Virus record (IMG/VR): IMGVR_UViG_3300025133_000020
Length of the DNA: 64,000 nucleotides
Reading direction: 5' to 3' (one strand)
Source: a virus
Lineage: Duplodnaviria; Caudoviricetes
The notes under the pieces are model-generated. The model made no database searches and had not been told where the DNA came from. It saw only the letters and a program-made list of their open reading frames with translations. Position 1 is the stretch's first letter, and every line of letters begins with the position of its first letter. Positions 6,310-63,931 of the stretch are shown in pieces. The position numbers were made by a program, and so were the translations under genes.

Positions 6310-6655
6310 ACTTAATGATGAGATATGGGAATACTGTAGAGCAAACAGTATAACTGATATTGATGGGTTTATTATCAATCTGGTTAGGACTGCATTCACC
6401 ATAGAGAAATTTGGTTATAGTCCTGAAGTAAGTAAGGAGCCGCAAGTGGTTGAAAAAGAGGTAGTTAAGGAAGTGGAAAAGATAGTAGAGGTAGAGAAGA
6501 TAGTAGAAGTGATTAAAGAGGTGCCAGTTGAGAAGGTAGTAGAAAAGGTGGTTGAGAAGGTAGTAGAAGTGGAGAAAAAAGTGGAGAAAAAAGAGAAAGA
6601 CATTTACGGTGAAGGTACCAGAGGTACTTTCGGTTCAAATTTATTAGACAATTAA
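6293..6655 (+). CDS. hypothetical protein with VEK-rich low-complexity repeat
   Basis: VEKEVVKEVEKIVEVEKIV... tract; lies between sbcD and sbcC. Confidence 0.6.
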   Translation: MELPNKLNDEIWEYCRANSITDIDGFIINLVRTAFTIEKFGYSPEVSKEPQVVEKEVVKEVEKIVEVEKIVEVIKEVPVEKVVEKVVEKVVEVEKKVEKKEKDIYGEGTRGTFGSNLLDN

Positions 6656-29388: not shown

Positions 29389-29747
29389 GGGGGTGACTGG
29401 TTTTGACTGTCACTGATTGGGTATGTAAGCAAGCACTGGGATTTAGATTATACCAGTATAAAATGTGTCTGAAAAAACGAAGAGACGAGAATATCGTAAC
29501 TACAGGAGAATACCTTCTAAGAGAAGTCTTTGAAGGGGAGCTAGCGCTAGCTGCATAATAAGCGCCTAATTGAGTAAAGCTTGATAAAACCTCAGTGTCC
29601 ATTCATTGATGAGGTTAACTACAAAGAATGGTGGGTTTGCAAATTCCGACAAAGATTTGCTAGTTTGTTTATTTAGAAAAATATTCTAAGCTTGTAGAAA
29701 GTATATGTAACTTTAATAGGACGAGGGTTCGACTCCCTCCACCTCCA
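29389..29747 (+). ncRNA. ssrA: tmRNA
   Basis: 5' GGGGGTGACTGGTTTTGAC and 3' GGACGAGGGTTCGACTCCCTCCACCTCCA; G3-U70 pair; tag ORF 29502-29558 TGEYLLREVFEGELALAA; CCA not encoded. Confidence 0.92.
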
Positions 29748-29867
29748 CAAAAACATTAATAGTGCTGAAAAGCTTCCACGTAGTGGAACTTTAGACCCTC
29801 TGATAATGCACCTTCAGGGGGCTTTCTTTTTATATTAACACCATATTTACTATTAAAGGAGATAGTT

Positions 29868-37901: not shown

Positions 37902-38903
37902 ATGTCCAAAATGTTACATGAAACGGTAAGAGCTAAGTTACTATCATATCTCACATTAAATGAGGTGATGGATGGTAATTGTGGTACGCATAATATCAAA
38001 CAATATATGTTTGAGGATGATAGTAGTTTCGACCCACTAGGTCATATAGATGCTGGTGATGGTGAAGTAATAACAGACCCTATAGACCCTAACCTAGATT
38101 GCGTACTAACATTTAGTAAGGGTGGTAGTAATTCTAAGTTGGAGTGGCCCCACTTTTCATTACCAGCAGGTTTTACTTGCCCTGAAGCTACAACCTGTAA
38201 AACGTTTGCGGCTGAACCAGGTCCTAATGGTAAAAAGTTTTCTGATGGCTCATCTTTATTACAAGGTAAAGAAGCCGAATTCAGGTGTTATGCGGCAAGA
38301 AGCCAATCCCAATACCCACCTGTGTATAAGAGTTCTCATAGGAATTTAGATTTATTGATGGGTGCCAAGAAAGAAGGTGGTATGGGGGCGATGAAGGATT
38401 TATTAGTGAGGTCTATAGAGTATCATGGGTTAGCTAGTAGAAAACTAGTACGAGTTCATGAGGGTGGGGATTTTTTCGTTAACTCTTATTTTCTGGCGTG
38501 GATGGAAGCAGCAAAAGAGTTCCCGAATATTTTATTTTATGCCTATACAACATCATTAAACTTCTGGTTACCCAATAGAGGGGCTGTCCCACCAAATTTC
38601 AAACTGATAGCTTCTATGGATAAGAAAAATGCTCAGACCATATTAGATAACGACTTAAGATATTCAGTCGTTGTTTATTCGGTAGAGAAGGCTAAGGAGT
38701 TAGGGTTGAAAATAGATGTTGACGATACGATAGCTTGGGATAGTGATGAAAATTTCGCATTATTATTACATGGTGGGCAACCTAAAGGTAGTGAAGCTGC
38801 TGCGGCACGTACAAAAAATACTAGAGGTGGAGTATACGATAGGATTAAACAAGCTTATCAAGATAATAGAGGTAAGAAATTAGATAGGGTAAGTTCACTA
38901 TAA
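37902..38903 (+). CDS. GP88-like protein
   Basis: FSLPAGFTCP...CYA...VRVHEGGDFF...FYAYT pattern. Confidence 0.55.
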   Translation: MSKMLHETVRAKLLSYLTLNEVMDGNCGTHNIKQYMFEDDSSFDPLGHIDAGDGEVITDPIDPNLDCVLTFSKGGSNSKLEWPHFSLPAGFTCPEATTCKTFAAEPGPNGKKFSDGSSLLQGKEAEFRCYAARSQSQYPPVYKSSHRNLDLLMGAKKEGGMGAMKDLLVRSIEYHGLASRKLVRVHEGGDFFVNSYFLAWMEAAKEFPNILFYAYTTSLNFWLPNRGAVPPNFKLIASMDKKNAQTILDNDLRYSVVVYSVEKAKELGLKIDVDDTIAWDSDENFALLLHGGQPKGSEAAAARTKNTRGGVYDRIKQAYQDNRGKKLDRVSSL

Positions 38904-38946
38904 TTAAGCACGAAATCAAATTATTTTCAAAAACTTTCAATAAATA

Positions 38947-38978
38947 CTTGCATTATCCAAATAACTTTTGTATATTCG
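38947..38978 (+). promoter_or_regulatory. strong promoter of tRNA operon 1
   Basis: 31 nt (38946-38976) are identical to 62070-62100; CTTGCA ... TATATTCG. Confidence 0.8.
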
Positions 38979-39040
38979 CACTATATTTAATAACAACGGG
39001 TGTATTATACCCAACTAAAGAATAGAAATCGGTGAAAACG

Positions 39041-39115
39041 ATGAGCATACATATTAGTTCGAATAATTGGAGACGCAATGTCACCATGGTCAGCTATTGC
39101 TCAGATTTCACTTAA
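39041..39115 (+). CDS. attenuator leader peptide MSIHISSNNWRRNVTMVSYCSDFT
   Basis: Lies between the promoter and a terminator; TGGTCAG (39087-39093) is complementary to the terminator 5' arm. Confidence 0.65.
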   Translation: MSIHISSNNWRRNVTMVSYCSDFT

Positions 39116-39141
39116 GGAAATAGAGCATATCTCGAAAGAGT

Positions 39142-39177
39142 AAAGCCCTGACCAGTAAAACGGTTAGGGCTTTTTTT
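39142..39177 (+). terminator. attenuator terminator upstream of tRNA operon 1
   Basis: AAAGCCCTGACC...GGTTAGGGCTTT plus T run. Confidence 0.85.
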
Positions 39178-39183
39178 GTATAT

Positions 39184-39255
39184 GGTGTTTGAAGCTTTAA
39201 GGTGAAGCGCTTGACTGTGAATCAAGAGAAGTGGGGTCGCTACCCATCTTACACC
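39184..39255 (+). tRNA. tRNA-His(GTG), atypical
   Basis: G-1:C73; CTTGA-CTGTGAA-TCAAG; two acceptor mismatches; T loop GTCGCTA. Confidence 0.65.
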
Positions 39256-39433
39256 CAAATTGTTATCTGCGAGATAACATGTTCTTTGACATCTTGGTAT
39301 AAAAATAGTGTATCAGAAAGGATGCGTTGTACTATTATAAATGGTATAGCACATCATAATTGATACATTGTATGATAAATCATACATGCTCGTGCTTATG
39401 GTATGAGTTAATGACTGATTTATCATACAAAAC

Positions 39434-39508
39434 ACAGGCGCATGTTCCAAGGCTGGCGATGGGGTCTCCAAAACCCTATGTGGTGAGTTCAATTCTTTAC
39501 CGTCTGTG
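39434..39508 (+). tRNA. tRNA-Trp(CCA)
   Basis: ACAGGCG/CGTCTGT acceptor; loop CTCCAAA. Confidence 0.75.
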
Positions 39509-39614
39509 CTTAATTTATAAACACTTTAGCACAGGTGATTATTATACTACAAAAACTTCTAGTGTTTTGGAGACTTTTCAGAAGTTAGTCATATTTACTA
39601 ATAAAGACAGTGAT

Positions 39615-40346
39615 ATGGAAAGTAAGAAATGTGGTAAATGTGATGCGTATAAACCCATTAACGAGTTTAATAAGAATAGTAGCAAACCAGATGGGTTGGC
39701 ACATATGTGTAAAACCTGTCATTCTGAATATAGACGACAACATTACCTTAAGAATAAGGTTAAGGTAATTAAGCAAGTTAATAGATATAGGGAAGAAAAC
39801 CCAGATAAATATGTATATAACCCTAAACCAGTAAGCGAAACTAACCGAATAATTAAACCTAAGAAGCACCACAGCTTCAACAAAAAAGCTGGAAGAATAT
39901 ATGAGGTTGGTTGTCACGTTTGTAACGTTAGGGTGTTTGCAAGTAAAAGTGAAATTGATGCTGGCGTAAATAAATTTTGCTCAAATAATTGTAGGTCTAA
40001 ATTAAATAAATCTAATTATCATCATTATCTTAGGGGGGTTAAAAAACGAGCTAAGAAGAAGGGGTTTGAGATTGATTTGACTGAAGAATTTTTGAAAGAC
40101 CTATTGGAGGTTACCCAAAAAGGTCTATGTTCCATAACCAATACCCCAATAATCGTTAAACACCCTAATGATAAAACTACGTTATTTGACACAGCATCGT
40201 TAGATAGGGTTGATAGTAATGAAGGGTATGTTAAGGGTAACGTACAGTGGGTTATGTTAGGGGTTAACTATATGAAAATGAAATTCAGTAATGATGAATT
40301 ACATAAAACATTAAGATTAATTAAAGAAAATTACAGGGAATCCTAG
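39615..40346 (+). CDS. His-Me finger endonuclease with Zn-binding N-terminus
   Basis: CGKC, CKTC, CHVC; ASLDRVDSNEGYVKGNVQWV. Confidence 0.7.
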   Translation: MESKKCGKCDAYKPINEFNKNSSKPDGLAHMCKTCHSEYRRQHYLKNKVKVIKQVNRYREENPDKYVYNPKPVSETNRIIKPKKHHSFNKKAGRIYEVGCHVCNVRVFASKSEIDAGVNKFCSNNCRSKLNKSNYHHYLRGVKKRAKKKGFEIDLTEEFLKDLLEVTQKGLCSITNTPIIVKHPNDKTTLFDTASLDRVDSNEGYVKGNVQWVMLGVNYMKMKFSNDELHKTLRLIKENYRES

Positions 40347-40360
40347 TACCTGTGCAAAAT

Positions 40361-40437
40361 ACGAGTATAGCTTATGTAGTAAAGCAGCCGTGGAGGTAGT
40401 AAGGTAATTCTAGATGGTGCAAGTCCACCTATTCGTG
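40361..40437 (+). tRNA. tRNA-like element, anticodon arm non-canonical
   Basis: ACGAGTA/TATTCGT acceptor, intact D arm and T-like arm; no 5-bp/7-nt anticodon arm. Confidence 0.45.
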
Positions 40438-40448
40438 CAAATAAATTC

Positions 40449-40535
40449 GGAGAGGCAAACCAACAGGCGGTGGTCGCACTTTGCTAAAGTGTTAGGAGTT
40501 AACGGCTCGTGTGGGTTCGACTCCCATTCTCTCCG
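40449..40535 (+). tRNA. tRNA-Ser(GCT)
   Basis: Class II cloverleaf, G73. Confidence 0.88.
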
Positions 40536-40545
40536 CCCTTGACTT

Positions 40546-40630
40546 TAATGGTGGAAATTCATACGGTAAAACAGCTAAACACTTCGGGATACCAAAAGCT
40601 ACCGTAGTGGATAACATAAAAAAAATATAA
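40546..40630 (+). pseudogene. 3' remnant of an HTH-bearing gene
   Basis: Encodes NGGNSYGKTAKHFGIPKATVVDNIKKI* with no start codon. Confidence 0.5.
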
Positions 40631-40718
40631 GGAAGAATAAACCAAGTCGGTCTACGGGTTGCTGCTTTGAAACCAGTTAGGTGTAACAGCCGTGAGAGTT
40701 CGAGTCTCTCTTCTTCCG
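40631..40718 (+). tRNA. tRNA-Ser(TGA)
   Basis: Class II cloverleaf, G73. Confidence 0.85.
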
Positions 40719-40770
40719 CCCTTGACTTTTCTGTACCTAGCACTATATTTATATCTAAAACGATATAGAT

Positions 40771-41427
40771 ATGGCTAGGAAACAGAAAACGATACACTAC
40801 ATCTACAAGACTACTTGTGAAGTGACAAACAGATACTATGTTGGGATGCATAGTACCAATAATCTGGAAGATGGTTATATGGGAAGTGGCAAACGATTGA
40901 GAGCTTCAATCAGGAAACATGGTGAAGACAACCACACCAAAGAAATAATAGCTTTCTACGATACAAGAGAGTTATTAGCGGAAGCGGAGAAGGAAGTTAT
41001 CACAGATGATATGGTTGATGACAAAAATTGTATGAATCTGATGGGTGGTGGGAACGGTGGCTTCATCAGTGATGAGCAACAGAGGTATCGTTCTGAGTGT
41101 GGTGGTAAAGCATTACATGAGAAAATGAGAACCGATAAAGAGTTTAGAGAGTTACAGGGTGAAAAGTTATCTAAATCAGTTAAACAGGCTCATGTTGAAG
41201 GTAAGATGAAAACTTGGAAGGATAATTACGATTGGACTGGTAAATCACATTCTGAAGAGACTAAACGTAAGATGAGTGACACTAATAAAGGTAAGGGTAC
41301 TGGTGAAGCCAATTCTCAATATGGTACCTGCTGGATAACCAAAGATGGTTCCAACAAGAAAGTAAAGAAATCTGAATTGGATGTCCATATAACCCAAGGT
41401 TGGGAAAAAGGCAGAAAGATAAATTAA
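40771..41427 (+). CDS. GIY-YIG (Seg-like) homing endonuclease with NUMOD3
   Basis: HYIYKTT...YYVGMHST..GYMGSG; HSEETKRKMS. Confidence 0.85.
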   Translation: MARKQKTIHYIYKTTCEVTNRYYVGMHSTNNLEDGYMGSGKRLRASIRKHGEDNHTKEIIAFYDTRELLAEAEKEVITDDMVDDKNCMNLMGGGNGGFISDEQQRYRSECGGKALHEKMRTDKEFRELQGEKLSKSVKQAHVEGKMKTWKDNYDWTGKSHSEETKRKMSDTNKGKGTGEANSQYGTCWITKDGSNKKVKKSELDVHITQGWEKGRKIN

Positions 41428-41428
41428 A

Positions 41429-41540
41429 AATGGTAACTGGGGTCTCCCATGTAATATTGAGGTTTTATCTAACCCAGAACTAGATAAGTGAGATTACCAT
41501 TAAAAAGCTGTTACGGTGTGAAAGACAGTTTGAGACACAC
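41429..41540 (+). ncRNA. structured intergenic RNA with two possible pseudoknots
   Basis: AATGGTAA/TTACCATT, TTATCTA/TAGATAA, CTGGG/CCCAG; AGCTGT/ACAGTT with GTGTG/CACAC. Confidence 0.4.
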
Positions 41541-41544
41541 ATAT

Positions 41545-41631
41545 GGAGAGGTGACAGAGTGGAAATGTGTCAGCTTGGAAAGTTGTAGCCTACGTTTATT
41601 CGTAGCGAAGGTTCGATTCCTTCTCTCTCCG
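41545..41631 (+). tRNA. tRNA-Ser(GGA)
   Basis: Class II cloverleaf, G73. Confidence 0.85.
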
Positions 41632-41649
41632 CCCTTGACTTTTTGGTAC

Positions 41650-41673
41650 TTAGGTTCGATTCCTGATATCCCA
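41650..41673 (+). pseudogene. tRNA 3'-half remnant
   Basis: TAGG-TTCGATT-CCTG-ATATCCC-A with no matching 5' half. Confidence 0.5.
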
Positions 41674-41686
41674 ACTAAATTAATAT

Positions 41687-41758
41687 GGTGTAGTTAGTGT
41701 AGTGGTAACACGACAGCTTGTGGTGCTGTTATCATGGGTTCGAACCCCATACTACACC
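41687..41758 (+). tRNA. tRNA-His(GTG)
   Basis: G-1:C73, canonical cloverleaf. Confidence 0.9.
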
Positions 41759-41781
41759 CGCTAGTGGTCTTTTCAATAAAT

Positions 41782-41856
41782 GGAACTGTGACATAATTGG
41801 TTTAATCATGCGCCCTGTTAAGGCAGCATATGTTGGTTCGAGTCCAACCAGTTCCG
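41782..41856 (+). tRNA. tRNA-Asn(GTT)
   Basis: Perfect acceptor and T arm; weak anticodon stem. Confidence 0.7.
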
Positions 41857-41869
41857 CGAAATTAAGTAT

Positions 41870-41942
41870 GTTCCCATGGTGTAACTGGAAAGCACTTCAG
41901 GTTTCTACCCTGACAGTGAGGGTTCGAATCCTTCTGGGAATA
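41870..41942 (+). tRNA. tRNA-Arg(TCT)
   Basis: Canonical cloverleaf. Confidence 0.9.
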
Positions 41943-41965
41943 CTAACATTTAAAAACTAGAAATT

Positions 41966-42160
41966 ATGGCAAGAGAACTATTACAAGAAGTAAAAGACTT
42001 CACATACGATTATGTGAAAAGGTATCCATATACCACTTCAGCGCCAATCGTTAGCTTATCTTATATGAGAGGTTGGGGTGATGGTTTAAGACATATGGAA
42101 CTAAGAGCTTTGGTTATCAAAGAGATGGACAGAGCGAAGAAAAGAATTAAAGAAGAATAA
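41966..42160 (+). CDS. hypothetical protein
   Basis: ORF within the tRNA cluster. Confidence 0.5.
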   Translation: MARELLQEVKDFTYDYVKRYPYTTSAPIVSLSYMRGWGDGLRHMELRALVIKEMDRAKKRIKEE

Positions 42161-42162
42161 AC

Positions 42163-42236
42163 GGGAGTGGTCAGGATGACACGGCTCTGAAAGGAGTTAT
42201 CCTAGGAGTTTGGGGTTCGAGTCCCCTTCGCCCCCC
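42163..42236 (+). tRNA. D-armless Phe(GAA)-like element (degenerate rearranged type)
   Basis: AGGATGAC/GTTATCCT stem capped by CTGAAAG, then AGGAGTT, then T arm. Confidence 0.45.
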
Positions 42237-42241
42237 AATAT

Positions 42242-42318
42242 TGTGCAGTAACCAGCATGTCTGATACACATGACTAAGGTAACGGTTGAAAATATCGGTT
42301 CGAATCCCTATTGCACAA
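42242..42318 (+). tRNA. rearranged tRNA-Ile(GAT)
   Basis: Acceptor-TA-ACC-[CATGT CTGATAC ACATG]-GGT-AACGG...-T loop; A73; weak T stem. Confidence 0.65.
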
Positions 42319-42324
42319 CTTTAT

Positions 42325-42415
42325 AGGCATATAGCAGCCCAACCTGATAAGTTGGAGAACTGTAGTTGGTATCTTGAGATAGCATCAAACGTGGGTTCGA
42401 ATCCCACTTTGCCTA
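42325..42415 (+). tRNA. rearranged tRNA-Ile(GAT)
   Basis: AGGCATA-TA-GCAG-[CCAAC CTGATAA GTTGG]-CTGT-AGTTGG...-GTGGG TTCGAAT CCCAC; A73. Confidence 0.75.
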
Positions 42416-42547
42416 CAACAATCCTCCCATTGCCTCTCATTGAAGCACACTTTGGGTTATAGTGATTATCAATGGATGGCGCCAGAAGTTGATATGAGTT
42501 ATAACAGATGTTTATGGTCATCTGGGTCCTTGCTTAAAACCATACTT

Positions 42548-42627
42548 CCAGAATTACCGAGCCAAGCTTATATCTTGGATATTCGTAGCGGTTGTTGCAA
42601 ACAAGGGTTCGAATCCCTTATTCTGGA
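42548..42627 (+). tRNA. rearranged tRNA-Ile(TAT)
   Basis: CCAGAAT/ATTCTGG; CGAG/TTCG enclosing CCAAG CTTATAT CTTGG; perfect T arm; A73. Confidence 0.75.
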
Positions 42628-42683
42628 CTGGAGGTTTACTTTTTGTACTTTAGCCTTATATTTATATCTAAACAATATAGATT

Positions 42684-43328
42684 ATGGCAAGAAAAGAAAA
42701 AAAGTACCACTACATATACAAAACGACTAATTTACTTAGTGGTAGATATTACATAGGAATGCATAGCACCGATAACCTTGACGATGGTTATATGGGTTCT
42801 GGAACAAGACTTAGGCGTTCACTTAATAAACATGGTGAGGAAAATCATAAGGTCGAGTTCTTAGAGTTCCTTGATACTCGGAAAGAGTTGAAGGAACGGG
42901 AAGCTGAAATAGTTAACCTTAATGAGGTAGCCAAAGTGGACTGTATGAATCTGAAGGTGGGTGGTGAAGGTGGGTTATCGAGTGAAGAACACAAGGTAGC
43001 ATTTATAAATGCTGGTATTGTGGGTAGAGAATCCTTTAGGGATAAACTAACAAATGATAAGGAATTCCGTAAGAGACATATAGATATGTTTACTGGGATG
43101 GTAAAGGAACGTCACGCTTCTGGTGAAGTTAATTACAATACGTTTGAAGGTAAAACGCATACAGAGGAAACTAAAGAGAAGATGAGGAAGTCTAAGAACG
43201 TAGGTAAAGCTAACTCACAATACGGCACTTGTTGGATAATCAGAGATGGTGATAATAAGAAGATAAATAAAGAAGACCTTAACGAATATCTTGATAAAGG
43301 TTGGGTTAAGGGTCGTAAAATGAAATAA
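42684..43328 (+). CDS. GIY-YIG (Seg-like) homing endonuclease with NUMOD3
   Basis: Paralog of 40771. Confidence 0.85.
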   Translation: MARKEKKYHYIYKTTNLLSGRYYIGMHSTDNLDDGYMGSGTRLRRSLNKHGEENHKVEFLEFLDTRKELKEREAEIVNLNEVAKVDCMNLKVGGEGGLSSEEHKVAFINAGIVGRESFRDKLTNDKEFRKRHIDMFTGMVKERHASGEVNYNTFEGKTHTEETKEKMRKSKNVGKANSQYGTCWIIRDGDNKKINKEDLNEYLDKGWVKGRKMK

Positions 43329-43333
43329 TATAT

Positions 43334-43405
43334 CGCGGGGTGGAGCAGTAGTAGCTCGTTAGGCTCATAACCTAGAGGTCGAAGGTGCAAATCCTTCTCC
43401 CGCTT
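43334..43405 (+). tRNA. tRNA-Met(CAT), initiator-like
   Basis: C1-U72 mismatch, CGCGGGG acceptor. Confidence 0.8.
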
Positions 43406-43416
43406 CTAAAACATAT

Positions 43417-43503
43417 CGCGGATATGAAGGCTGGTGGTGATGCTTGGGTAGTCTCATAAGCTACTATCGTAATGATGTATAGGTTCGATTCCTATATCCG
43501 CAA
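43417..43503 (+). tRNA. tRNA-Met(CAT), initiator-like with long variable arm
   Basis: C1-A72 mismatch; extra ATCG-TAA-TGAT arm. Confidence 0.75.
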
Positions 43504-43508
43504 CTAAA

Positions 43509-43817
43509 GGGGGTGACCGAGTTCTGGGAGACTCAACCTTAAAGCACGAAAATGGTCGTGAGGCAGTAACATGTCGGTCAATAGTAATTTCAATCTTTCC
43601 CACGGTTTACAGAATGCACCTATAGCGACCAAAGTTCTTTTGGTGGTGAATAAAAACAAGCAAGGGAAGCAAGCTCTCCAAGAAAGATTGACCCGATGAA
43701 ATATCGACTTAGTAAGAGAGTAATCAGTGGATTTGATATGAAGCGCTGACAGAAAAATGCTAGACAGACGAGTAAACGGTTCCATTGATTATGTGGGTTC
43801 GAATCCCATCATCTCCA
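43509..43817 (+). ncRNA. second tmRNA-like / large Ala-type tRNA-like RNA (309 nt)
   Basis: GGGGGTG/CATCTCC acceptor with G3-U70 and A73, canonical T arm, highly paired interior; no ALAA tag found. Confidence 0.6.
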
Positions 43818-43830
43818 CAAAAAATTATAT

Positions 43831-43901
43831 CGCGGGTAGCTTAGTAGCAATCAGGTCTCATAAGCCTTGACGTGTAAAGGGAGCGTTACCCTTACCCGCA
43901 T
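43831..43901 (+). tRNA. degenerate tRNA-Met(CAT)
   Basis: CGCGGGT/ACCCGCA acceptor and CTCATAA loop; D and T arms are eroded. Confidence 0.5.
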
Positions 43902-43941
43902 CAAAAAACGCTTGGTTCGCATAGTGGCTGATTGCATAAAC

Positions 43942-44023
43942 GGATGAGTAGCCTAGTGGTCAGGCAACAGACTGTTAATCTGTGAGGGAAACTTCTACGT
44001 TGGTTCGAACCCAACCTCATCCG
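43942..44023 (+). tRNA. tRNA-Asn(GTT) with long variable arm
   Basis: ACAGA-CTGTTAA-TCTGT; GAGG-GAAA-CTTC extra arm; G73. Confidence 0.8.
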
Positions 44024-44067
44024 CACTTTTACTTTTATGTGTATATTTATTAACAAAGACAGTTAAT

Positions 44068-44502
44068 ATGCCAAGGAAAGTAAATGACGAATTAATAGTG
44101 AAGATGAAGGAAGATTATGCTTCTGGTAAATCTTCTAGAACCATAGCTAAAGACGTTGGTATTAGTAAGAGTACTGTAATGGTATATGTTAATCCTAAAG
44201 TATTGACACCCGAAGAGATTGAGGAAAAGAGGCGTAAGAATGTTGAAACTGTAACTAATTGGAGACGAAATTTAAAGAAGAGGGGTATCGACTATAAGGG
44301 TGGTTCATGTGAAGTATGTGGTTATGATAAATGTAATGAGGCGTTAGAATTTCACCACAAAGACCCAAATGAGAAGGATTTTGGTATTGGCGCTAACGGT
44401 CATACTAGGTCTTGGGAGAAAGTGAAAATAGAGTTAGATAAGTGTATGATAGTTTGCTCTAATTGTCATAGAGAAATACACGCTGGATTAATAGAATGTT
44501 AA
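44068..44502 (+). CDS. HNH endonuclease with N-terminal HTH
   Basis: CEVC..ALEFHH..VCSNCHREIH. Confidence 0.85.
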   Translation: MPRKVNDELIVKMKEDYASGKSSRTIAKDVGISKSTVMVYVNPKVLTPEEIEEKRRKNVETVTNWRRNLKKRGIDYKGGSCEVCGYDKCNEALEFHHKDPNEKDFGIGANGHTRSWEKVKIELDKCMIVCSNCHREIHAGLIEC

Positions 44503-44543
44503 CTCTCAGGTCGAGATTTCGAAATTCTCACTAGGAGCAATAA

Positions 44544-44618
44544 CCCGATATGGTGTAATGGCTAGCACGACACTCTCATAAGGTGTACGACACAGTTCGA
44601 TTCTGTGTATCGGGACCA
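44544..44618 (+). tRNA. tRNA with CAT anticodon (elongator Met or Ile2)
   Basis: Canonical cloverleaf with encoded CCA. Confidence 0.88.
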
Positions 44619-45012
44619 TTGACATTCTCAGATATTAGTTGTATATTGGTATTATGGACTTAATTACCGATAATAAAAGATTAGAATATCGTCACATAGT
44701 CGAACATGAGGGTGAGACGTGGGTTAGGAAAGAATACATGTCACCCCAATGCTTCGCATGGGAAGATGAACCAGATAGACTTAGAGATTCACATACCATT
44801 TCTTGGTATCCAATGGATGATGAGGATACTCTTTATGGTTATTACAGTTGTTCTATGGGTTGGTCTAAGGATGGACACTTACATAAAGACAACCCGATAC
44901 CAGAAATAGAAGTGGAATTCAGGAAAACCAATGGTAAAGATTTATGTTATTTCAACAACATAGAAACACCTCAATAACCCATATTGACATTCTCAGATAT
45001 TAGTAGTATATT
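44618..45012 (+). repeat. duplicated promoter cassette
   Basis: ATTGACATTCTCAGATATTAGT at 44618-44639 and 44983-45004, each followed by GTATATT and an ORF. Confidence 0.8.
44654..44977 (+). CDS. hypothetical protein
   Basis: ATG directly after the duplicated promoter. Confidence 0.55.
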   Translation: MDLITDNKRLEYRHIVEHEGETWVRKEYMSPQCFAWEDEPDRLRDSHTISWYPMDDEDTLYGYYSCSMGWSKDGHLHKDNPIPEIEVEFRKTNGKDLCYFNNIETPQ

Positions 45013-45018
45013 TGTAGT

Positions 45019-45351
45019 ATGGAAGATAAACAATTTTATTCAAAGTATAAGTTTCGAATTAAAGTGGAGCTTATTGATGGGGTTACCTATTATACACCAC
45101 AAAAAGCGGAATACCCAGTATTGTCTGGTGAATTCACATCTACTGAAGGTAGGAAAGTACCCATGCGAAGTGTAGATGGAAGATGGGAGCCAACACCAGA
45201 AGAATACTGGAAAACTGGCAAATGGCTCGACCTACCGATAACATCAAATGATGCGATGGAAAAAAATATTGCCCAAGAAGTAATCGACCATCACTTATTG
45301 ATGGAGAAGCTAGATAGTGGCATGTTCATTAAAGAATATTTAGAAGTATGA
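45019..45351 (+). CDS. hypothetical protein
   Basis: ATG directly after the duplicated promoter. Confidence 0.55.
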   Translation: MEDKQFYSKYKFRIKVELIDGVTYYTPQKAEYPVLSGEFTSTEGRKVPMRSVDGRWEPTPEEYWKTGKWLDLPITSNDAMEKNIAQEVIDHHLLMEKLDSGMFIKEYLEV

Positions 45352-45662
45352 GCAAAATCAAAGACTTCTTAATAGAGTACAAGAGTACCATAAACATACC
45401 AGCACTTATTGTGTTGGTCGTCTTATTCGATTCAGTTATAATACTCACTGAGCAGAACGTGAAACTAATGCTTGGATTCGACCTTTTCCTTTTCGTAGGG
45501 ACAATCGTCAATTATATTGGTTGGAAACTAAAGAATAGGAATGAGGAAGAGATAGAAGAAATGGTATGTAGCAAATGTGGTAAGACACCAGTTTACATAG
45601 CGTGTCCTGACCATTGTGAAGAGTGCTACATTAAGTACGAAGTAAACGAAAAAGTACTATGA
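45348..45662 (+). CDS. two-TM protein with C-terminal Zn ribbon
   Basis: Hydrophobic pair; CSKC..CPDHCEEC. Confidence 0.55.
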   Translation: MSKIKDFLIEYKSTINIPALIVLVVLFDSVIILTEQNVKLMLGFDLFLFVGTIVNYIGWKLKNRNEEEIEEMVCSKCGKTPVYIACPDHCEECYIKYEVNEKVL

Positions 45663-45964
45663 CCGAAGAAGAAAGAAAAAAAGGTTTGAACCATATGAAA
45701 GAGGTTCGAAGAAAGGTTCAAGAAAAATGGGAATCTACTGGGTTCCTAGATGGACTGGAAGGGCACATTAAAGAGAATATGACTATCTTAATGGAGAACC
45801 AAGAAAACGCTGTGATAAGCGAGAACCCAACTGGTATGACAAAAGAATGGGATGGGGTGTATTTACCTATCGTAAAACATGTATTCAAGGAACAACTGGC
45901 TGACCAGATACACACACCACTTGCGATACATGTGGCTAAACAATTATCAGGTCATACTTTTTAA
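45659..45964 (+). CDS. stand-alone homolog of the major capsid protein N-terminal region
   Basis: KWESTGFLDGLEGHIKENMTILMENQ...YLPIVKHVF resembles gp23-type N-termini. Confidence 0.55.
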   Translation: MTEEERKKGLNHMKEVRRKVQEKWESTGFLDGLEGHIKENMTILMENQENAVISENPTGMTKEWDGVYLPIVKHVFKEQLADQIHTPLAIHVAKQLSGHTF

Positions 45965-45973
45965 TAATAAAAT

Positions 45974-46053
45974 GCAGGTGTAACCGAGTGTAGCTACGAA
46001 CTACATATCCGTAATAGGAGTTGCAAATGTGGGTTCGATTCCCTCCACCTGTT
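45974..46053 (+). tRNA. rearranged tRNA-Arg(ACG)
   Basis: GCAGGTG-TA-ACCG-[TGTAG CTACGAA CTACA]-CGT-AATAGGAGTTGCAAAT-T arm; U73. Confidence 0.75.
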
Positions 46054-46066
46054 CTAAATAATAAAC

Positions 46067-46207
46067 ATGAGAGCATACACTAACAAGACTGATAAGGTAG
46101 ATAGTCGAAAATGCCTTTACAGCGAAATCAGAGCTAACGATAAAGCTAGAAAGAAGGCTGCAAGGCGAGAAGCAAAACAAGAGTTCGAATCTCTTGGAGG
46201 GTACTAA
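46067..46207 (+). CDS. small basic ORF ending in a tRNA 3'-half remnant
   Basis: 46 aa; the last codons are AAGAG-TTCGAAT-CTCTT-GGAGGGT-A. Confidence 0.45.
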   Translation: MRAYTNKTDKVDSRKCLYSEIRANDKARKKAARREAKQEFESLGGY

Positions 46208-46391
46208 AAATTGATATAATGGCAACAGTATATAAGATTGAGATTGAAGCAGTAAGTCCTTGGACTAATTATCCACCAGAAGTGGTGGAAGAGATGCTTA
46301 AAGAGTTGATAGAGAAACGTAGAGATGCGAAAGGTAGTCGAACCTTTCAAGATAACGTTAAGGTCAACGTAACGCGAAAAGCGTAAAATAT

Positions 46392-46470
46392 GGCGGTGTA
46401 ACCCGTTCAGGTTTCGACCCTGTTAACGGTAATGGAGTTGCAAATGTGGGTTCGAGTCCCACCTCCGTCT
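46392..46470 (+). tRNA. rearranged tRNA-Arg(TCG)
   Basis: GGCGGTG-TA-ACCCGT-[CAGG TTTCGAC CCTG]-ACGGT-AATGGAGTTGCAAAT-T arm; U73. Confidence 0.75.
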
Positions 46471-46507
46471 CCCTGAACTTTTGTACCTTAGCTGCATATT
46501 TATATGT

Positions 46508-47152
46508 ATGAGGAAACAAAAGAAATATCATTACATCTATAAGACTACTTGTAGTGTAACAAATAGATACTATGTTGGAATGCATAGTACAGATAATTTA
46601 GATGATGGATATATGGGTAGTGGTAAACGCCTGTGGCACTCATTTAACTATCATGGAAAGGATAATCATTCAGTAGAGATATTGGAGTATTATGATACCA
46701 GAAAGGGGTTGAGAGAACGAGAGGCTGAGTTGGTTAATGAAGACCTATTGAAAGAAGATTTATGTATGAATCTAAAGACAGGTGGTGATGGTGGGTTCGT
46801 TAATTTATCCGCATGTACTAAAGGTGGTCACGCCAGAGCTAAATCTACTAACCGCATAATGTGGGATGAAAATCCAGAGAAATATTTTGAAATCTTTTCT
46901 ACTAGAATGAAAAAAACGTGGGAAGACCCAGAATATAGAGAGAAGATGTTGAAGGTTATTAATTGGGAAGGTAGAGAACATAGCGAAGAAACCAAACAGA
47001 AGATGTCTGAAACCAAAAAAGGTACTGGCACTGGTAAAACTAACTCACAGTATGGTACTTGTTGGATAACCAAGGATGGCTACAATAAGAAGATAAAGAA
47101 AGAAGAGTTAAACGAATATATTGAGAATAGTTGGGTTAAAGGGAGAAAATGA
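46508..47152 (+). CDS. GIY-YIG (Seg-like) homing endonuclease with NUMOD3
   Basis: Third paralog of 40771/42684. Confidence 0.85.
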   Translation: MRKQKKYHYIYKTTCSVTNRYYVGMHSTDNLDDGYMGSGKRLWHSFNYHGKDNHSVEILEYYDTRKGLREREAELVNEDLLKEDLCMNLKTGGDGGFVNLSACTKGGHARAKSTNRIMWDENPEKYFEIFSTRMKKTWEDPEYREKMLKVINWEGREHSEETKQKMSETKKGTGTGKTNSQYGTCWITKDGYNKKIKKEELNEYIENSWVKGRK

Positions 47153-47188
47153 CTTGTTTCCCTCATATTAATTGTGTATCTTTGTAAG

Positions 47189-47776
47189 ATGGTTAAGATT
47201 AGTTTAGGTGATGGTTTATTTACCATAATTGATGATTCCAACTACGATAAGGTATCTAAATATACTTGGCATGTAACTCCAAGTAATTATGCTGCCGCTA
47301 CGATAGGTGGGGTTACTATACTACTACATAGGTTTATCATTAATCCACCCGTTGGTATGGTCGTTGACCATATAGATGGTGATAGGTTAGACAATAGGAA
47401 GAACAATCTCAGAGTCTGTACACAGGGTGAGAATCTTAGAAACCGACTTAAACATTATAGAGGTGGTACATCAAAGTATAAGGGTGTGAGTTATAATCGT
47501 GAAGCAGGTAAATGGTTAACTAGAATAAGGGTAGAGAATGTGAAATATGGTTTGGGGTCTTATCACGATGAATTAGACGCAGCCTTAGCTTACAATATTG
47601 GTAGTGTGTTATTATCACCTAAATTTGGTAAGCTTAACGTTATACCTTGTATAAACAACGAACGAATATTATCCAACTATACTTGTTCAAAATTGGTGAA
47701 GGTCAGTAAATTATCATTGGGTGTTACTAAGGAAGTATTAACCAAATACAAATATGAAAGAAAACGAAGAGATTGA
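47189..47776 (+). CDS. HNH endonuclease with AP2 domain
   Basis: VVDHIDGDRLDNRKNNLR; SKYKGVS...AALAYN. Confidence 0.85.
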   Translation: MVKISLGDGLFTIIDDSNYDKVSKYTWHVTPSNYAAATIGGVTILLHRFIINPPVGMVVDHIDGDRLDNRKNNLRVCTQGENLRNRLKHYRGGTSKYKGVSYNREAGKWLTRIRVENVKYGLGSYHDELDAALAYNIGSVLLSPKFGKLNVIPCINNERILSNYTCSKLVKVSKLSLGVTKEVLTKYKYERKRRD

Positions 47777-48068
47777 TTTATTAGGGACACTAACCCTATA
47801 TAAGAAGGGTGGTAGAATGACCCCAATGTGGTCAGGCTACTGGGGCGCTGCTGATGTCGATGGTGATTTACATTCTTGTGGGTTCCTATTCGATGAAAAG
47901 GAATTAGCGCTGGGTGAATCATGTGAAGCTCGTATGAGATTCTTATTCAGTTCACACGAAGCCTTCAACGTAAAAACTTCAGTAGGTGCAACCTTAGTGA
48001 TGAAAGAAGGTGTACGAAGTATAGGTGAATTCGAGGTCACCGAAATATTAAATGCCTCTATGGTGTAA
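47754..48068 (+). CDS. small protein resembling EF-Tu domain III
   Basis: GGRMTPMWSGY...GATLVMKEGVRSIGEFEV; the stop codon lies within tRNA-Arg(CCT). Confidence 0.45.
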   Translation: MKENEEIDLLGTLTLYKKGGRMTPMWSGYWGAADVDGDLHSCGFLFDEKELALGESCEARMRFLFSSHEAFNVKTSVGATLVMKEGVRSIGEFEVTEILNASMV

Positions 48069-48126
48069 CTGGATAGCATAAGTCTTTCCTAAAGATTTAG
48101 TTCGGGTTCGAGTCCTGGTAGGGGTA
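48054..48126 (+). tRNA. tRNA-Arg(CCT)
   Basis: Canonical cloverleaf. Confidence 0.85.
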
Positions 48127-48137
48127 CAATGCAAAAT

Positions 48138-48218
48138 GGTGGAGTAGTCCCGACTTTTTTCTAAATAGTTAAGGGTAATTGGAAGCTGCAAATGAGGGTT
48201 CGACCCCCTTCTCCACTT
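48138..48218 (+). tRNA. rearranged tRNA-Arg(TCT)
   Basis: GGTGGAG-TA-GTCC-[anticodon arm, loop TTTCTAA]-GGGT-AATTGGAAGCTGCAAAT-T arm; U73. Confidence 0.65.
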
Positions 48219-48259
48219 CAACTATTGACAATACCAAGATGTTTCTTTATACTTGTAGT

Positions 48260-48502
48260 ATGAAGAACAACTACATTACCCCAGAAGATATTAATAACGC
48301 CACAGATTCAGAATTTGTTGAGCTTATTACCCGTATGGCGAATAATTGCGCCAAGACGTTCCGTTTCCCAAGTATCACTCAACGTACCATTAGCACTAAT
48401 AATGCTATCAATTCCGCATTATGGGCGCAGCATCTTGTTGGTGATAGTAACCCATTCGAGTTCTTTAATGATATAATGAAAAGGTCAATCATAGCATCAT
48501 GA
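48260..48502 (+). CDS. hypothetical protein
   Basis: TTGACA promoter directly upstream. Confidence 0.5.
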   Translation: MKNNYITPEDINNATDSEFVELITRMANNCAKTFRFPSITQRTISTNNAINSALWAQHLVGDSNPFEFFNDIMKRSIIAS

Positions 48503-61722: not shown

Positions 61723-61779
61723 TTTTTAAGAAAACCATTAAGTATTGTGGTAGTGATTGGTTCGGTTTAACCCATAAAG

Positions 61780-62025
61780 GTGACTGCTCAAACCCAATCC
61801 ATTGCTATAACGAATAACATGAACGTTCACCACAAACTAAATATAATGCACGAACATTTAATGTATATGAAAATTCCGTATCATAGCGTTTCGGTTATTC
61901 ACAGACACCAAGATTTAGGGTTTCATGTTATATTCAATGATAGTGTAAAAGACATGGTTACGGACGAACTGAAGGGGTATATTGAAGCTACTGGATTCAC
62001 TTTCTCTTATGTTAGTTCGAGCTAA
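61780..62025 (+). CDS. hypothetical protein
   Basis: ORF downstream of the Rot-like gene; start uncertain. Confidence 0.4.
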   Translation: MTAQTQSIAITNNMNVHHKLNIMHEHLMYMKIPYHSVSVIHRHQDLGFHVIFNDSVKDMVTDELKGYIEATGFTFSYVSSS

Positions 62026-62070
62026 TTTAGCTACGAAACCGAGCTAATTTCAAAAAAACTTTCAAAAAGA

Positions 62071-62102
62071 CTTGCATTATCCAAATAACTTTTGTATATT
62101 TG
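62071..62102 (+). promoter_or_regulatory. strong promoter of tRNA operon 2
   Basis: Near-identical to 38947-38978. Confidence 0.8.
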
Positions 62103-62133
62103 TACCATATTTAATAGAAAGAAGAAAAAACTG

Positions 62134-62235
62134 ATGAATACAATTACTAACATATTAGTCGTGACATTATGTCTCCTGAGCAACGTGCTGTTGCTAGGGC
62201 AGTCGGGCTATGGTGTTATTTCTTGTATCATGTAA
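62134..62235 (+). CDS. attenuator leader peptide MNTITNILVVTLCLLSNVLLLGQSGYGVISCIM
   Basis: 7 Leu, 4 Val, 2 Cys; CAGTCGGGCT (62200-62209) is complementary to the terminator 5' arm. Confidence 0.7.
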   Translation: MNTITNILVVTLCLLSNVLLLGQSGYGVISCIM

Positions 62236-62256
62236 AGTATACAATATAAAGCATTG

Positions 62257-62288
62257 AAAGCCCTGACTGAAAAGTTAGGGCTTTTTTT
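62257..62288 (+). terminator. attenuator terminator upstream of tRNA operon 2
   Basis: AAAGCCCTGACT-GAAA-AGTTAGGGCTTT plus T run. Confidence 0.88.
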
Positions 62289-62314
62289 GTGCCCAGTTCT
62301 TTGAAATAAAATAT

Positions 62315-62400
62315 GTGTAGGTGCCAGAGTCAGGTCGAATGGTGCAGACTGCAAATCTGCAAGTGAAAGCTCATCAGTGGTTCGAATCCACTTCTACACT
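62315..62400 (+). tRNA. tRNA-Cys(GCA) with long variable arm
   Basis: GCAGA-CTGCAAA-TCTGC; U73; extra arm. Confidence 0.82.
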
Positions 62401-62411
62401 CTTAATAATAC

Positions 62412-62484
62412 GCCCCTATAGTGTAGCGGTTCAGCACGTAACTCTTACAAAGTTGCAGCCCAGATTCGAATTCTGGTGGGGGTA
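62412..62484 (+). tRNA. tRNA-Val(TAC)
   Basis: Canonical cloverleaf. Confidence 0.88.
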
Positions 62485-62511
62485 CAAAGGAGAGTGATGT
62501 ACAAGCTCTCT

Positions 62512-62591
62512 GGCAATATGGTGGAATGGTAGACACGCCACAAAGATGGTGGGGGTTGCTCCCCGTAAAGGTTCGAATCCTTTTATTGTCA
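62512..62591 (+). tRNA. Leu-body tRNA with non-canonical anticodon loop
   Basis: GTGGAATGGTAGACAC D arm, variable arm, A73; loop AAAGATG, no U33. Confidence 0.55.
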
Positions 62592-62599
62592 TAAAATAT

Positions 62600-62671
62600 G
62601 TCCCTATGGCGTAACGGCAAGCGTATCGTTTTTACATGGCGAAGGAGATAGTTCGATTCTATCTGGGGATA
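62600..62671 (+). tRNA. tRNA-Val(TAC)
   Basis: Cloverleaf with loop TTTACAT. Confidence 0.8.
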
Positions 62672-62681
62672 CTGGTCACAT

Positions 62682-62763
62682 GGGGATGTGGTGGAATTGG
62701 TAGACACGGTAGGTTTAGGACCTACTGCCGCAAGGCGTGAGGGTTCGAGTCCCTCCATCCCTA
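62682..62763 (+). tRNA. tRNA-Leu(TAG), class II
   Basis: Canonical, with long variable arm. Confidence 0.92.
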
Positions 62764-62771
62764 CAACATAT

Positions 62772-62848
62772 GCCGCAGTGACGGAAACTGGCAAAGCCTA
62801 ATAGTTTTAGAAACTATTGATGTGTGGGTTCGACTCCCACCTGCGGTA
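62772..62848 (+). tRNA. tRNA-Leu(TAG), short variable loop
   Basis: ATAGT-TTTAGAA-ACTAT; 6-nt variable region. Confidence 0.8.
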
Positions 62849-62866
62849 CCTTGAACAAAGATTGAA

Positions 62867-63106
62867 ATGATGGATATAAAGAAGGGTGCTTGGGATAATA
62901 TGATTTCAGCGATGGATTTCGAATCTGATGATAAGAATTTCATTCACGATTTCAAGGTGATGACCAAGAAGTATGGACAAGCTTATATTGGTTTTTGCCG
63001 AGCAATGTGGGAAGCGAATGAAGGGGTTCAATCTGAGGAAGAATTTATGAAGATGAACGCTGATATGCCAAAGGCGTTCTTCGAAAAAGCGATTAAGGGG
63101 AAGTGA
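62867..63106 (+). CDS. hypothetical protein
   Basis: Stop codon overlaps the 5' end of the next tRNA. Confidence 0.5.
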   Translation: MMDIKKGAWDNMISAMDFESDDKNFIHDFKVMTKKYGQAYIGFCRAMWEANEGVQSEEEFMKMNADMPKAFFEKAIKGK

Positions 63107-63173
63107 TGGAAACTGGCAAAGCCTCTGTGACTTAAAATCTCAGGATGTGAGGGTTCGAATCCCTTCTTCCCTA
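63097..63173 (+). tRNA. tRNA-Leu(TAA), short variable loop
   Basis: Same D loop GGAAACTGGCAAAGCCT and GGATGT variable region. Confidence 0.8.
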
Positions 63174-63179
63174 CAATAT

Positions 63180-63255
63180 GGGCGAGTGAGGAAACTGGCA
63201 AAGCCTCTTTAACTCAAAATTAAAGGATGTATGGGTTCGAGTCCCATCTCGCCTA
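63180..63255 (+). tRNA. tRNA-Leu(CAA), short variable loop
   Basis: TTTAA-CTCAAAA-TTAAA. Confidence 0.8.
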
Positions 63256-63260
63256 CATAT

Positions 63261-63345
63261 GACGCAGTGGTGGAATTGGAAGACACGAGGGACTTAAAAT
63301 CCCTTTCCCGATAAGGGAGTGTGGGTTCGAGTCCCACCTGCGTTA
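63261..63345 (+). tRNA. tRNA-Leu(TAA), class II
   Basis: Canonical, with long variable arm. Confidence 0.92.
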
Positions 63346-63931
63346 CTTAAATGGTGAACACGATAGAATTTTTTTCGGTAGTGTTTACTTTTTATACTTT
63401 AGGTGTATATTTAATAGTATGAAGTATATACACACTAAAGAACAGATGGGGGATGCAGTGGCTAAATCTAAATCGATAGCTGGCATCTGTAGAGAGTTAG
63501 GTATTAAACCCTGTGGTGGGAATTACAGGACGATACACGATAAACTAGATTTGTGGAATATAGATACTTCCCATTTTACTGGGCAAGCACATAACCAAGG
63601 GGTGGATTTTAAACCATTTGGTAATAAATATGAGCTTGGGGATGTTCTCATTGAGAATTCACCTTATAAGTCTTCTTACCACCTTAAATCTAGGTTATAT
63701 AAGGAAGGGTATAAAGACCCTAAATGTGAGAGGTGTGGTATTAGTAATTGGAATGGTGAATCGATTACGTTTGAGTTAGACCACGTTAATGGTGTTAAGA
63801 GTGACAATAGGATTGAGAACTTAACCATTTTATGTCCTAACTGTCATAGCCAGACACCAACGTTTAGGAATAATAAGCGATAGTTGCCCGTTGAGGGCGT
63901 GTGGGTTCGAGTCCCACCTGCGTTACTTAAA
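63319..63931 (+). repeat. 33-bp direct repeat of the tRNA-Leu 3' half flanking the HNH gene
   Basis: GTGTGGGTTCGAGTCCCACCTGCGTTACTTAAA at 63319-63351 and 63899-63931. Confidence 0.9.
63419..63883 (+). CDS. HNH homing endonuclease
   Basis: CERC..ELDHVNG..DNRIENLTILCPNCHSQT. Confidence 0.88.
   Translation: MKYIHTKEQMGDAVAKSKSIAGICRELGIKPCGGNYRTIHDKLDLWNIDTSHFTGQAHNQGVDFKPFGNKYELGDVLIENSPYKSSYHLKSRLYKEGYKDPKCERCGISNWNGESITFELDHVNGVKSDNRIENLTILCPNCHSQTPTFRNNKR

Follow-up and report, generated by a model that had tools for sequence, protein, structure and literature searches.

Phage tRNA genes are usually seen as constitutive add-ons that tune codon usage or replace tRNAs cut by host defences. 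Why, then, would a phage place a tRNA array behind a short open reading frame (ORF) and an intrinsic terminator? This question is raised by a 64,000-nucleotide (nt) stretch of the IMG/VR virus record IMGVR_UViG_3300025133_000020 (Duplodnaviria; Caudoviricetes), referred to as the window, near whose end a promoter, such an ORF and a terminator precede tRNA genes for Cys, Val and Leu. We refer to this arrangement as unit U1. An initial annotation, made from the sequence alone, had interpreted it as a leader-peptide attenuator that senses shortage of the very tRNAs encoded downstream. The comparative evidence presented here supports this interpretation, and we conclude that U1 is probably a ribosome-mediated (leader-peptide) transcription attenuator controlling a phage tRNA operon.

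Anatomy of unit U1

The window comes from a large, uncultured phage of marine origin, with nearly all of its genes on the plus strand; the longest contig encoding one of the window's proteins measures 212 kb. The promoter, 33-codon ORF, intrinsic terminator and boxA-like site described in the initial annotation are all present in the sequence (coordinates in Table 1). The promoter, TTGCAT-N17-TATATTTG (62072-62102), matches the pattern TTG-N17-21-TAnnTTTG, which is found upstream of 18 genes in the window and which we take to be of the Bacteroidota type. It is one of four copies in this phage that are 85-96% identical, the match being 92% to positions 38929-38992 and 96% to L001:14747-14820. 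The transcription start was placed from the -7 box.

Within the ORF, seven Leu residues are encoded by five different codons (TTA twice, CTC, CTG twice, TTG and CTA), accompanied by four Val and two Cys residues. The ORF is kept as an ORF, with in-frame insertions and deletions, in L009, L010, L015, L017 and IMG/VR relatives. Close variants exchange Ser16 for Cys and Leu19 for Val and thus remain inside, or enlarge, the Leu/Val/Cys set. Not listed by a simple consensus terminator scan, the terminator lies 20 nt past the ORF stop codon and has a folding energy of -19.8 kcal/mol. Between its T-run and the first tRNA (26 nt), no promoter motif was seen by eye. ARAGORN and Rfam called every tRNA of the previously proposed series of Cys, Val, Val and five Leu, as well as an odd tRNA at 62511-62592 that the series had missed.

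U1 matches no leader class represented in Rfam. No gathering-score match to known leader or riboswitch families (Leu_leader, His_leader, Trp_leader, T-box and others) was obtained in the window, L010, L011 or L013, where all Rfam matches were to tRNA and tmRNA, and none of the leader families matched at E <= 1 over positions 38900-48300. We also considered a lipoprotein or signal peptide, which was dropped because the possible lipobox is lost in L009 and almost nothing would be left of the peptide after cleavage.

Leader codons match the downstream tRNAs

Two further units in the same phage, U2 and U3, likewise consist of a promoter, a short ORF, a terminator and tRNAs. U2 precedes an array of Ser, His, Asn, Arg and Met tRNAs together with unusually folded Ile and Arg tRNAs. 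The promoter copy of U3 is situated just outside the window, past its end (L001:14747; L013 and L011 represent the same stretch), and behind it come a 29-codon ORF, a terminator of unrelated sequence and tRNAs for Phe, Glu, Met, Ala and Asp. Each leader is rich in a different group of amino acids, namely Leu/Val/Cys in U1, Ser/His/Asn/Arg/Ile/Met in U2 and Phe/Glu/Asp/Ala in U3.

We evaluated this correspondence against the amino-acid frequencies of the window's long ORFs. In U1, 13 of 32 residues are Leu, Val or Cys, compared to a background of 0.15 (P = 4e-4). The U2 leader has 12 of 23 residues in its strict tRNA set (P = 7e-4), rising to 14 of 23 once the Rfam-supported Ile tRNAs are added; two low-threshold ARAGORN candidates without Rfam support, tRNA-Trp at 39434 and tRNA-Thr at 40361, were kept out of the strict statistics. 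For U3, the count is 18 of 28 residues (P = 4e-5), or 17 of 28 with a revised tRNA set. The three tests combine to a Fisher P of 5e-9. Similarly, matches to the leaders' own sets (43/83) far exceed those to cross-assigned sets (20/166; P = 4e-11), and the true assignment of leaders to tRNA blocks is the best of all six permutations. This outcome is independent of the hydrophobic look of the U1 leader. The polar or acidic character of the U2 and U3 leaders speaks against a membrane peptide.

Complementarily, we looked for such units in other phages. A diverged ortholog of the Cys/Val/Leu unit is present in the IMG/VR contig L009, and two metagenomic phages, L015 and L017, with 68% identity in the neighbouring TerD-like protein, carry both unit types, Cys/Val/Leu and Phe/Glu/Asp/Ala; the 10 kb upstream in these two contain protein genes only. 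A 109-amino-acid (aa) protein encoded within arrays of this kind served as an anchor and led to 20 further IMG/VR loci. These were searched for an ATG-initiated ORF of 15-60 codons that ends at most 63 nt from a hairpin-plus-T6 terminator and has a tRNA within 1.6 kb. Units were found in 18 of the 20 loci, giving 27 non-redundant leaders overall. All 27 units have a terminator, a feature required by the pipeline, and in 22 of 26 the promoter motif stands 25-90 nt ahead of the ATG, with mostly A-rich sequence before the start codon. Leader types for other amino acids occur as well, for example in L022, L029, L041 and L024:11545. By analogy with L024 and G003, a fourth unit for Pro/Gln/Tyr/Thr/Gly/Lys would be expected elsewhere on the contig of ~212 kb. 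Across the 27 leaders, composition tracks the units' own tRNA sets, in agreement with the three units of this phage and with what the initial annotation had proposed for U1.

Two further examples extend this series. A complete 353-kb relative (G003) has four copies of one promoter plus terminator at the heads of four tRNA blocks. Judging by its genome sequence, the cultured Ralstonia phage RsoM2USA (L043) is a carrier of the same leader-terminator-tRNA design: a 37-codon ORF and a strong terminator (6205-6375) stand directly before 15 tRNA genes, 33 of the 36 leader residues fall in the downstream tRNA set, and a complement to the terminator arm is located at codons 20-24.

Antiterminator pairing and the proposed switch

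The second line of evidence concerns the RNA. In U1, positions 62200-62210 of the ORF form a 10-bp duplex, interrupted by one bulge, with 62257-62269 in the terminator 5' arm. Its energy is -13.6 kcal/mol for the arm alone, which beats 98.6% of dinucleotide shuffles (P = 0.014), and -17.2 kcal/mol with two loop bases included (P = 0.008). The antiterminator pairing claimed at the outset is real.

Terminator sequences vary widely among the units of related phages, and the ORF segment changes in step with them, even where the terminators are very different. An ORF segment complementary to the unit's own terminator 5' arm (shuffle P <= 0.05) was detected in 19 of 27 units, and in 24 of 27 the complementary segment is positioned at codons 16-27, just past the regulatory block. 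Cognate pairs beat non-cognate ones: in 56% of columns, a terminator arm finds its best partner in the ORF of its own unit. Where L015 and L017 differ by A/G in the strand, the arm shows the corresponding T/C change. Terminators of the Phe/Glu/Asp/Ala type are unrelated between L013 and L015/L017, and each comes with a matching strand. As a control, 37 other terminators in the same loci gave a median shuffle P of 0.53, compared to 0.015 for the units (Mann-Whitney P = 3e-7). Furthermore, U1 and U2 share a similar nucleotide motif that is read in different frames, indicating a constraint on the RNA rather than on the peptide. A hydrophobic peptide conserved without the pairing, which would have pointed to a small membrane peptide, is thus not what the comparison revealed.

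From this anatomy we infer how the switch may operate. A transcript would start at the strong phage promoter, and its first 180 nt would include the 33-codon ORF, whose codons 8-21 specify almost exclusively Leu, Val and Cys, the amino acids of the tRNAs encoded just downstream, and whose codons 23-26 would double as the RNA strand complementary to the terminator 5' arm. With Leu-, Val- and Cys-tRNAs in plentiful supply, the ribosome would pass over this strand, or the strand would fold back on codons 8-10; either way, the terminator hairpin could form and transcription would end at 62288. Slow decoding, in turn, would leave the ribosome stalled upstream and the strand free to pair with the emerging terminator arm, so that RNA polymerase could read into the boxA-like site and the Cys/Val/Leu tRNA genes. 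The new phage tRNAs would then quicken leader translation and shut the operon again, a negative feedback. The same module, with differently composed leaders, would act on the phage's other tRNA blocks. In the case of no translation at all, the model predicts read-through, a departure from trp, though one that would suit a phage.

Folding of nascent transcripts is consistent with this course of events. As long as the 3' arm is not yet made, the terminator 5' arm pairs with the strand unless a ribosome covers the codons that directly follow the regulatory block, about 21-29 in U1, 13-22 in U2 and 21-29 in U3. Across the 8 units measured, 20-34 nt separate the stop codon from the terminator, so that a terminating ribosome would not hinder the hairpin. 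Many units fold the strand onto codons ~8-10 around a small hairpin, and nested folds with a z score of -2 or below were obtained for 8 of 20 units. The competing hairpin assigned to U1 by the initial annotation (62175-62198) does appear in the minimum-free-energy fold and has counterparts just before the antiterminator strand in most relatives of the Cys/Val/Leu type; a statistically supported anti-antiterminator was not found. It is possible that this hairpin acts as a pause or anti-antiterminator element.

Several observations weigh against attenuation. Orthologous units are not independent, which inflates the pooled P values, and 8 of the 27 units lack a significant complement. In the nearest ortholog, L009, a G-to-A change in the terminator arm results in a stronger terminator and a weaker antiterminator (shuffle P = 0.056-0.057). 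Taken alone, the U1 leader is the weakest case, as it has the look of a hydrophobic helix and its share of Leu, Val and Cys is attained by 5% of the small ORFs in the window. These last two features would also be expected if the short ORFs were ordinary small phage genes with terminators of their own (a small membrane peptide in U1), with the tRNAs transcribed by constitutive leaky read-through and the codon match reflecting coincidence or selection for translation by the phage's tRNAs. Conservation of the LLGQSGYGV part between the window and L009 could be read in the same way. However, the conserved stretch is the antiterminator strand itself and is conserved at the nucleotide level, while U2 reads its similar motif in another frame. 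Moreover, the polar or acidic U2 and U3 peptides have only the N-terminus in common with U1, leader composition follows each unit's tRNA set, and ordinary terminators come without an upstream complement. We regard this small-gene explanation as quite improbable.

Further difficulties concern the behavior of the switch. Folding to equilibrium, with the ribosome represented by masking, retained the terminator in every case and did not discriminate. The terminator also wins at equilibrium in the Escherichia coli trp leader; given such an equilibrium, the decision must be kinetic. In the nascent folds, a ribosome at the U1 stop codon leaves the strand uncovered, so that termination under replete conditions is not accounted for. 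Compared to shuffles, the anti-antiterminator duplex reaches a combined P of only 0.07, short of statistical support. Finally, two of the four G003 units lack an ATG, even as codon block, strand and terminator are kept.

The absence of an ATG and the missing support for an anti-antiterminator would fit a translation-dependent attenuator that reports general translational capacity or transcription-translation coupling, not specific cognate tRNAs, with the terminator mainly setting a fixed ratio of leader to tRNA transcripts. The nascent folds point the same way, since the antiterminator forms in them without any ribosome and any loss of translation would open the operon. Such a general sensor would have no need for a unit-specific leader composition matching each downstream tRNA set, and we consider it unlikely.

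The terminated leader transcript could also be the product itself, either as a trans-acting small RNA or as an mRNA, with control of the tRNAs being secondary. An attenuator-derived small RNA has a precedent in rnTrpL of Sinorhizobium (PMC6614838). Strong promoter and strong terminator would together yield an abundant RNA of ~180 nt, and the whole U1 leader is more structured than shuffled sequence (z = -3.9). Yet no target is evident, and neither the match of codons to tRNAs nor the covarying pairing to the terminator is accounted for. We give this possibility very little credence as the main function, although it could coexist with attenuation.

Neighbouring tRNA genes, known attenuators and meaning

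Table 1. Positions of features in and around the tRNA-leader units (window coordinates unless a locus is named)
Feature	Position	Strand	Remarks
U1 promoter	62049..62102	+	A/T-rich upstream stretch; -33 TTGCAT (62072-62077); -7 TATATTTG (62095-62102)
U1 5' untranslated leader (inferred)	62108..62133	+	A-rich, without Shine-Dalgarno sequence
U1 leader ORF, 33 codons (MNTITNILVVTLCLLSNVLLLGQSGYGVISCIM)	62134..62235	+	ATG 62134, TAA 62233-62235
U1 putative regulatory codon block, codons 8-21	62155..62196	+	7 Leu, 3 Val, 1 Cys in 14 codons
U1 local hairpin	62175..62198	+	Over the last Leu/Val codons; in minimum-free-energy fold
U1 predicted antiterminator strand	62200..62210	+	Codons 23-26, in the ORF; best duplex with terminator 5' arm
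U1 intrinsic terminator	62256..62288	+	13-bp stem 62256-62268/62273-62285, GAAA loop, T7 run 62282-62288
boxA-like motif GTTCTTTGAAAT	62296..62307	+	Between U1 terminator and first tRNA
Array putatively regulated by U1	62315..63346	+	Cys(GCA), Val(UAC), odd tRNA, Val(UAC), Leu(UAG) twice, 79-aa ORF, Leu(UAA), Leu(CAA), Leu(UAA)
79-aa ORF in U1 array	62867-63106	+	Between the two Leu(UAG) and Leu(UAA)
Copies of tRNA-Leu(UAA) 3' end	63304-63351 and 63884-63931		Flank HNH endonuclease gene
U2 paralogous unit	38947..39177	+	Same promoter, ORF, antiterminator strand, terminator
U2 leader ORF, 24 codons (MSIHISSNNWRRNVTMVSYCSDFT)	39041-39115	+	
U2 predicted antiterminator strand	39087-39110	+	
U2 terminator	39142-39177	+	Related to U1 terminator
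U2 first tRNA, His (GUG)	Within 39185..39292	+	Rfam 40.8 bits
boxA-like motif by U2 array	39281-39292	+	
G003 leaders without ATG	L044:9780-9949 and L047:1207-1376		Codon block homologous to ATG-led leaders elsewhere

The tRNA genes themselves show several unusual features. In the U1 array, the 87-nt tRNA-Cys(GCA) (62315-62401) has a type II shape, its variable arm and D-loop both being long, and by our own reading of the sequence carries U at the discriminator position. A long tRNA-Cys (85-86 nt) also occurs in L009, L010, L015 and L017, alongside normal 72-nt tRNA-Cys genes in L015 and L017. The odd tRNA at 62511-62592 resembles tRNA-Leu in shape but has a non-canonical anticodon loop; the ARAGORN call is Ser(AGA) in the window, whereas in L010 the program assigns it no amino acid. 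Arrays of relatives include tRNAs called Leu(AAG) and Pro(AGG). Downstream, an HNH endonuclease gene (63419-63883) lies between two 48-nt copies, 92% identical, of the tRNA-Leu(UAA) 3' end, and looks like a homing-endonuclease insertion that duplicated this end.

In the U2 array, tRNA-like genes with a rearranged core, for Ile (GAU, UAU) and Arg (ACG, UCG, UCU), are spread over 42242-42627, 45974-46470 and 48138-48218. They score 27-37 bits in Rfam, and anticodon-like 7-nt loops are visible in simple folds. Endonuclease-like genes are found here as well, a GIY-YIG gene at 42684-43328 and a weaker GIY-YIG/NUMOD3 match at 40771-41427. A third promoter copy within the window heads the stretch 31986-32650, which has no leader ORF or terminator before its tRNA-like sequences. 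Instead, a boxA-like motif follows directly (32064-32075), then tRNA-like sequences with large insertions, for which neither ARAGORN nor Rfam made a call, and a terminator-like hairpin with a T-run closes the stretch at ~32617-32650.

A tRNA whose CUA anticodon would decode UAG is encoded at 31568-31642 of the window and is kept in distant relatives (L015:12452-12525, L017:12295-12368 and L046:5742). G003, the complete relative, has in addition a tRNA whose UUA anticodon would decode UAA. These genes suggest stop-codon suppression or recoding in the phage group. In the ATG-less leaders of G003, an in-frame TAA or TAG comes right after the -7 box; non-canonical initiation, leader decay or recoding could underlie them.

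The ~109-aa protein used as an anchor belongs to a family encoded inside phage tRNA arrays (L001:10348-10677, L015:5733-6062, L042 (KU682439) 6992-7351 and L043 (MG752970) 6965-7306), both in Stenotrophomonas and Ralstonia phages and in those with promoters indicative of Bacteroidota hosts. The wider phage group encodes further functions related to tRNA. A full-length tmRNA gene (Rfam RF00023, 85.5 bits) is located at 29389-29750 of the window, a CCA-adding enzyme and a DnaJ homologue at 34490-35689 and 27097-28143, and relatives carry T4 Rnl1-like and Rnl2-like RNA ligases (L020:5513-6553; L021:5808-6842). CCA-adding enzyme, DnaJ homologue and RNA ligases together look like a tRNA maintenance and repair toolkit. 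The presence of tmRNA, CCA-adding enzyme and RNA ligases near tRNA-leader units in the window and relatives is in keeping with a phage that devotes resources to supplying and repairing tRNAs.

The surroundings of U1 differ between samples and relatives. In a case of strain variation, the 312 nt (61750-62061) that separate the TerD-like gene from the U1 promoter, with an 81-aa ORF included, are swapped in two other samples for an unrelated 164 nt (L001:8303-8466); L001 matches the flanks at 100% identity, and L002 the downstream flank at 98.8%. A search of the 'phages' collection with the DNA and two proteins returned no close relative. In IMG/VR, a pattern search for the neighbouring 673-aa protein and a search for the exact U1 terminator sequence gave no match. 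A 79%-identical relative of the upstream gene (P0003) is not followed by a tRNA array.

The boxA-like motif recurs at the heads of tRNA arrays. Three exact copies are present in the window (32064, 39281 and 62296), all on the plus strand, and GTTCTTTGAMAT is found again at the heads of tRNA/RNA arrays beyond the window and in relatives (L013:2780 and 10583, L029:2763, L024:8858 and L033:9582), directly after the leader terminator in the case of L029. GTTCTTTGAMAT presumably resembles the rrn boxA of many bacteria. This recurrence suggests Nus-type processive antitermination of the tRNA operons, akin to the rrn-type boxA/Nus system, in which a similar motif heads stable-RNA operons. As the phage motif comes only after the leader terminator, read-through at that terminator cannot be due to it.

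For the leader itself, the closest parallels are the enterobacterial attenuators (trpL, hisL, leuL, pheL and the multivalent ilvGMEDA (Ile/Val/Leu) and thr (Thr/Ile) leaders). They share with U1 a short leader rich in the sensed codons, an intrinsic terminator with a mutually exclusive antiterminator that uses the terminator 5' arm, and a terminator that is the more stable structure, with a kinetic outcome. As in the phage unit, several amino acids are sensed by one leader in ilv. The phage unit differs in that its targets are tRNA genes instead of biosynthetic enzymes, so that the sensed quantity would be replenished directly by the product. It is, moreover, phage-encoded, has a promoter pointing to a Bacteroidota host and lacks a Shine-Dalgarno sequence; paralogous leaders share out the amino acids among several tRNA blocks; and the anti-antiterminator (1:2) hairpin is without statistical support. 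T-box riboswitches also couple tRNA status to terminator read-through via an antiterminator. However, they bind uncharged tRNA directly (specifier codon and T-box bulge), need no translation and control synthetase or amino-acid genes, whereas the phage unit has a predicted translated ORF and no T-box match in Rfam. The RsoM2USA unit has the same architecture and codon-to-tRNA logic as U1, with different leader and terminator sequences and, by record, a host of another phylum. In full-text literature searches, we found no published description of attenuation of tRNA genes, in line with the expectation of the initial annotation.

If the attenuation reading is true, the phage gauges decoding speed codon by codon and makes tRNAs on demand, with the operon's own product closing the feedback loop. 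A textbook mechanism would thereby be extended to stable RNA genes and to Bacteroidota-type expression signals, and the grouping of phage tRNA genes by amino acid would be accounted for. More tentatively, and with somewhat more doubt than confidence, we envisage that large phages infecting several bacterial phyla divide their tRNA genes among a few operons and equip each operon with a codon-matched 'test' ORF and a terminator that can be switched. In concert, the units would act as a genome-wide gauge of decoding speed that covers nearly all amino acids and may detect depletion of host tRNAs through starvation, host shut-off or anticodon-nuclease defence and allow an answer with exactly the missing tRNAs, acting as counter-defence sensor and homeostat in one. 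The units would also offer testable predictions on how phages respond to tRNA-targeting immunity, and, as compact amino-acid-specific sensors, such modules may be reusable as reporters of tRNA charging.

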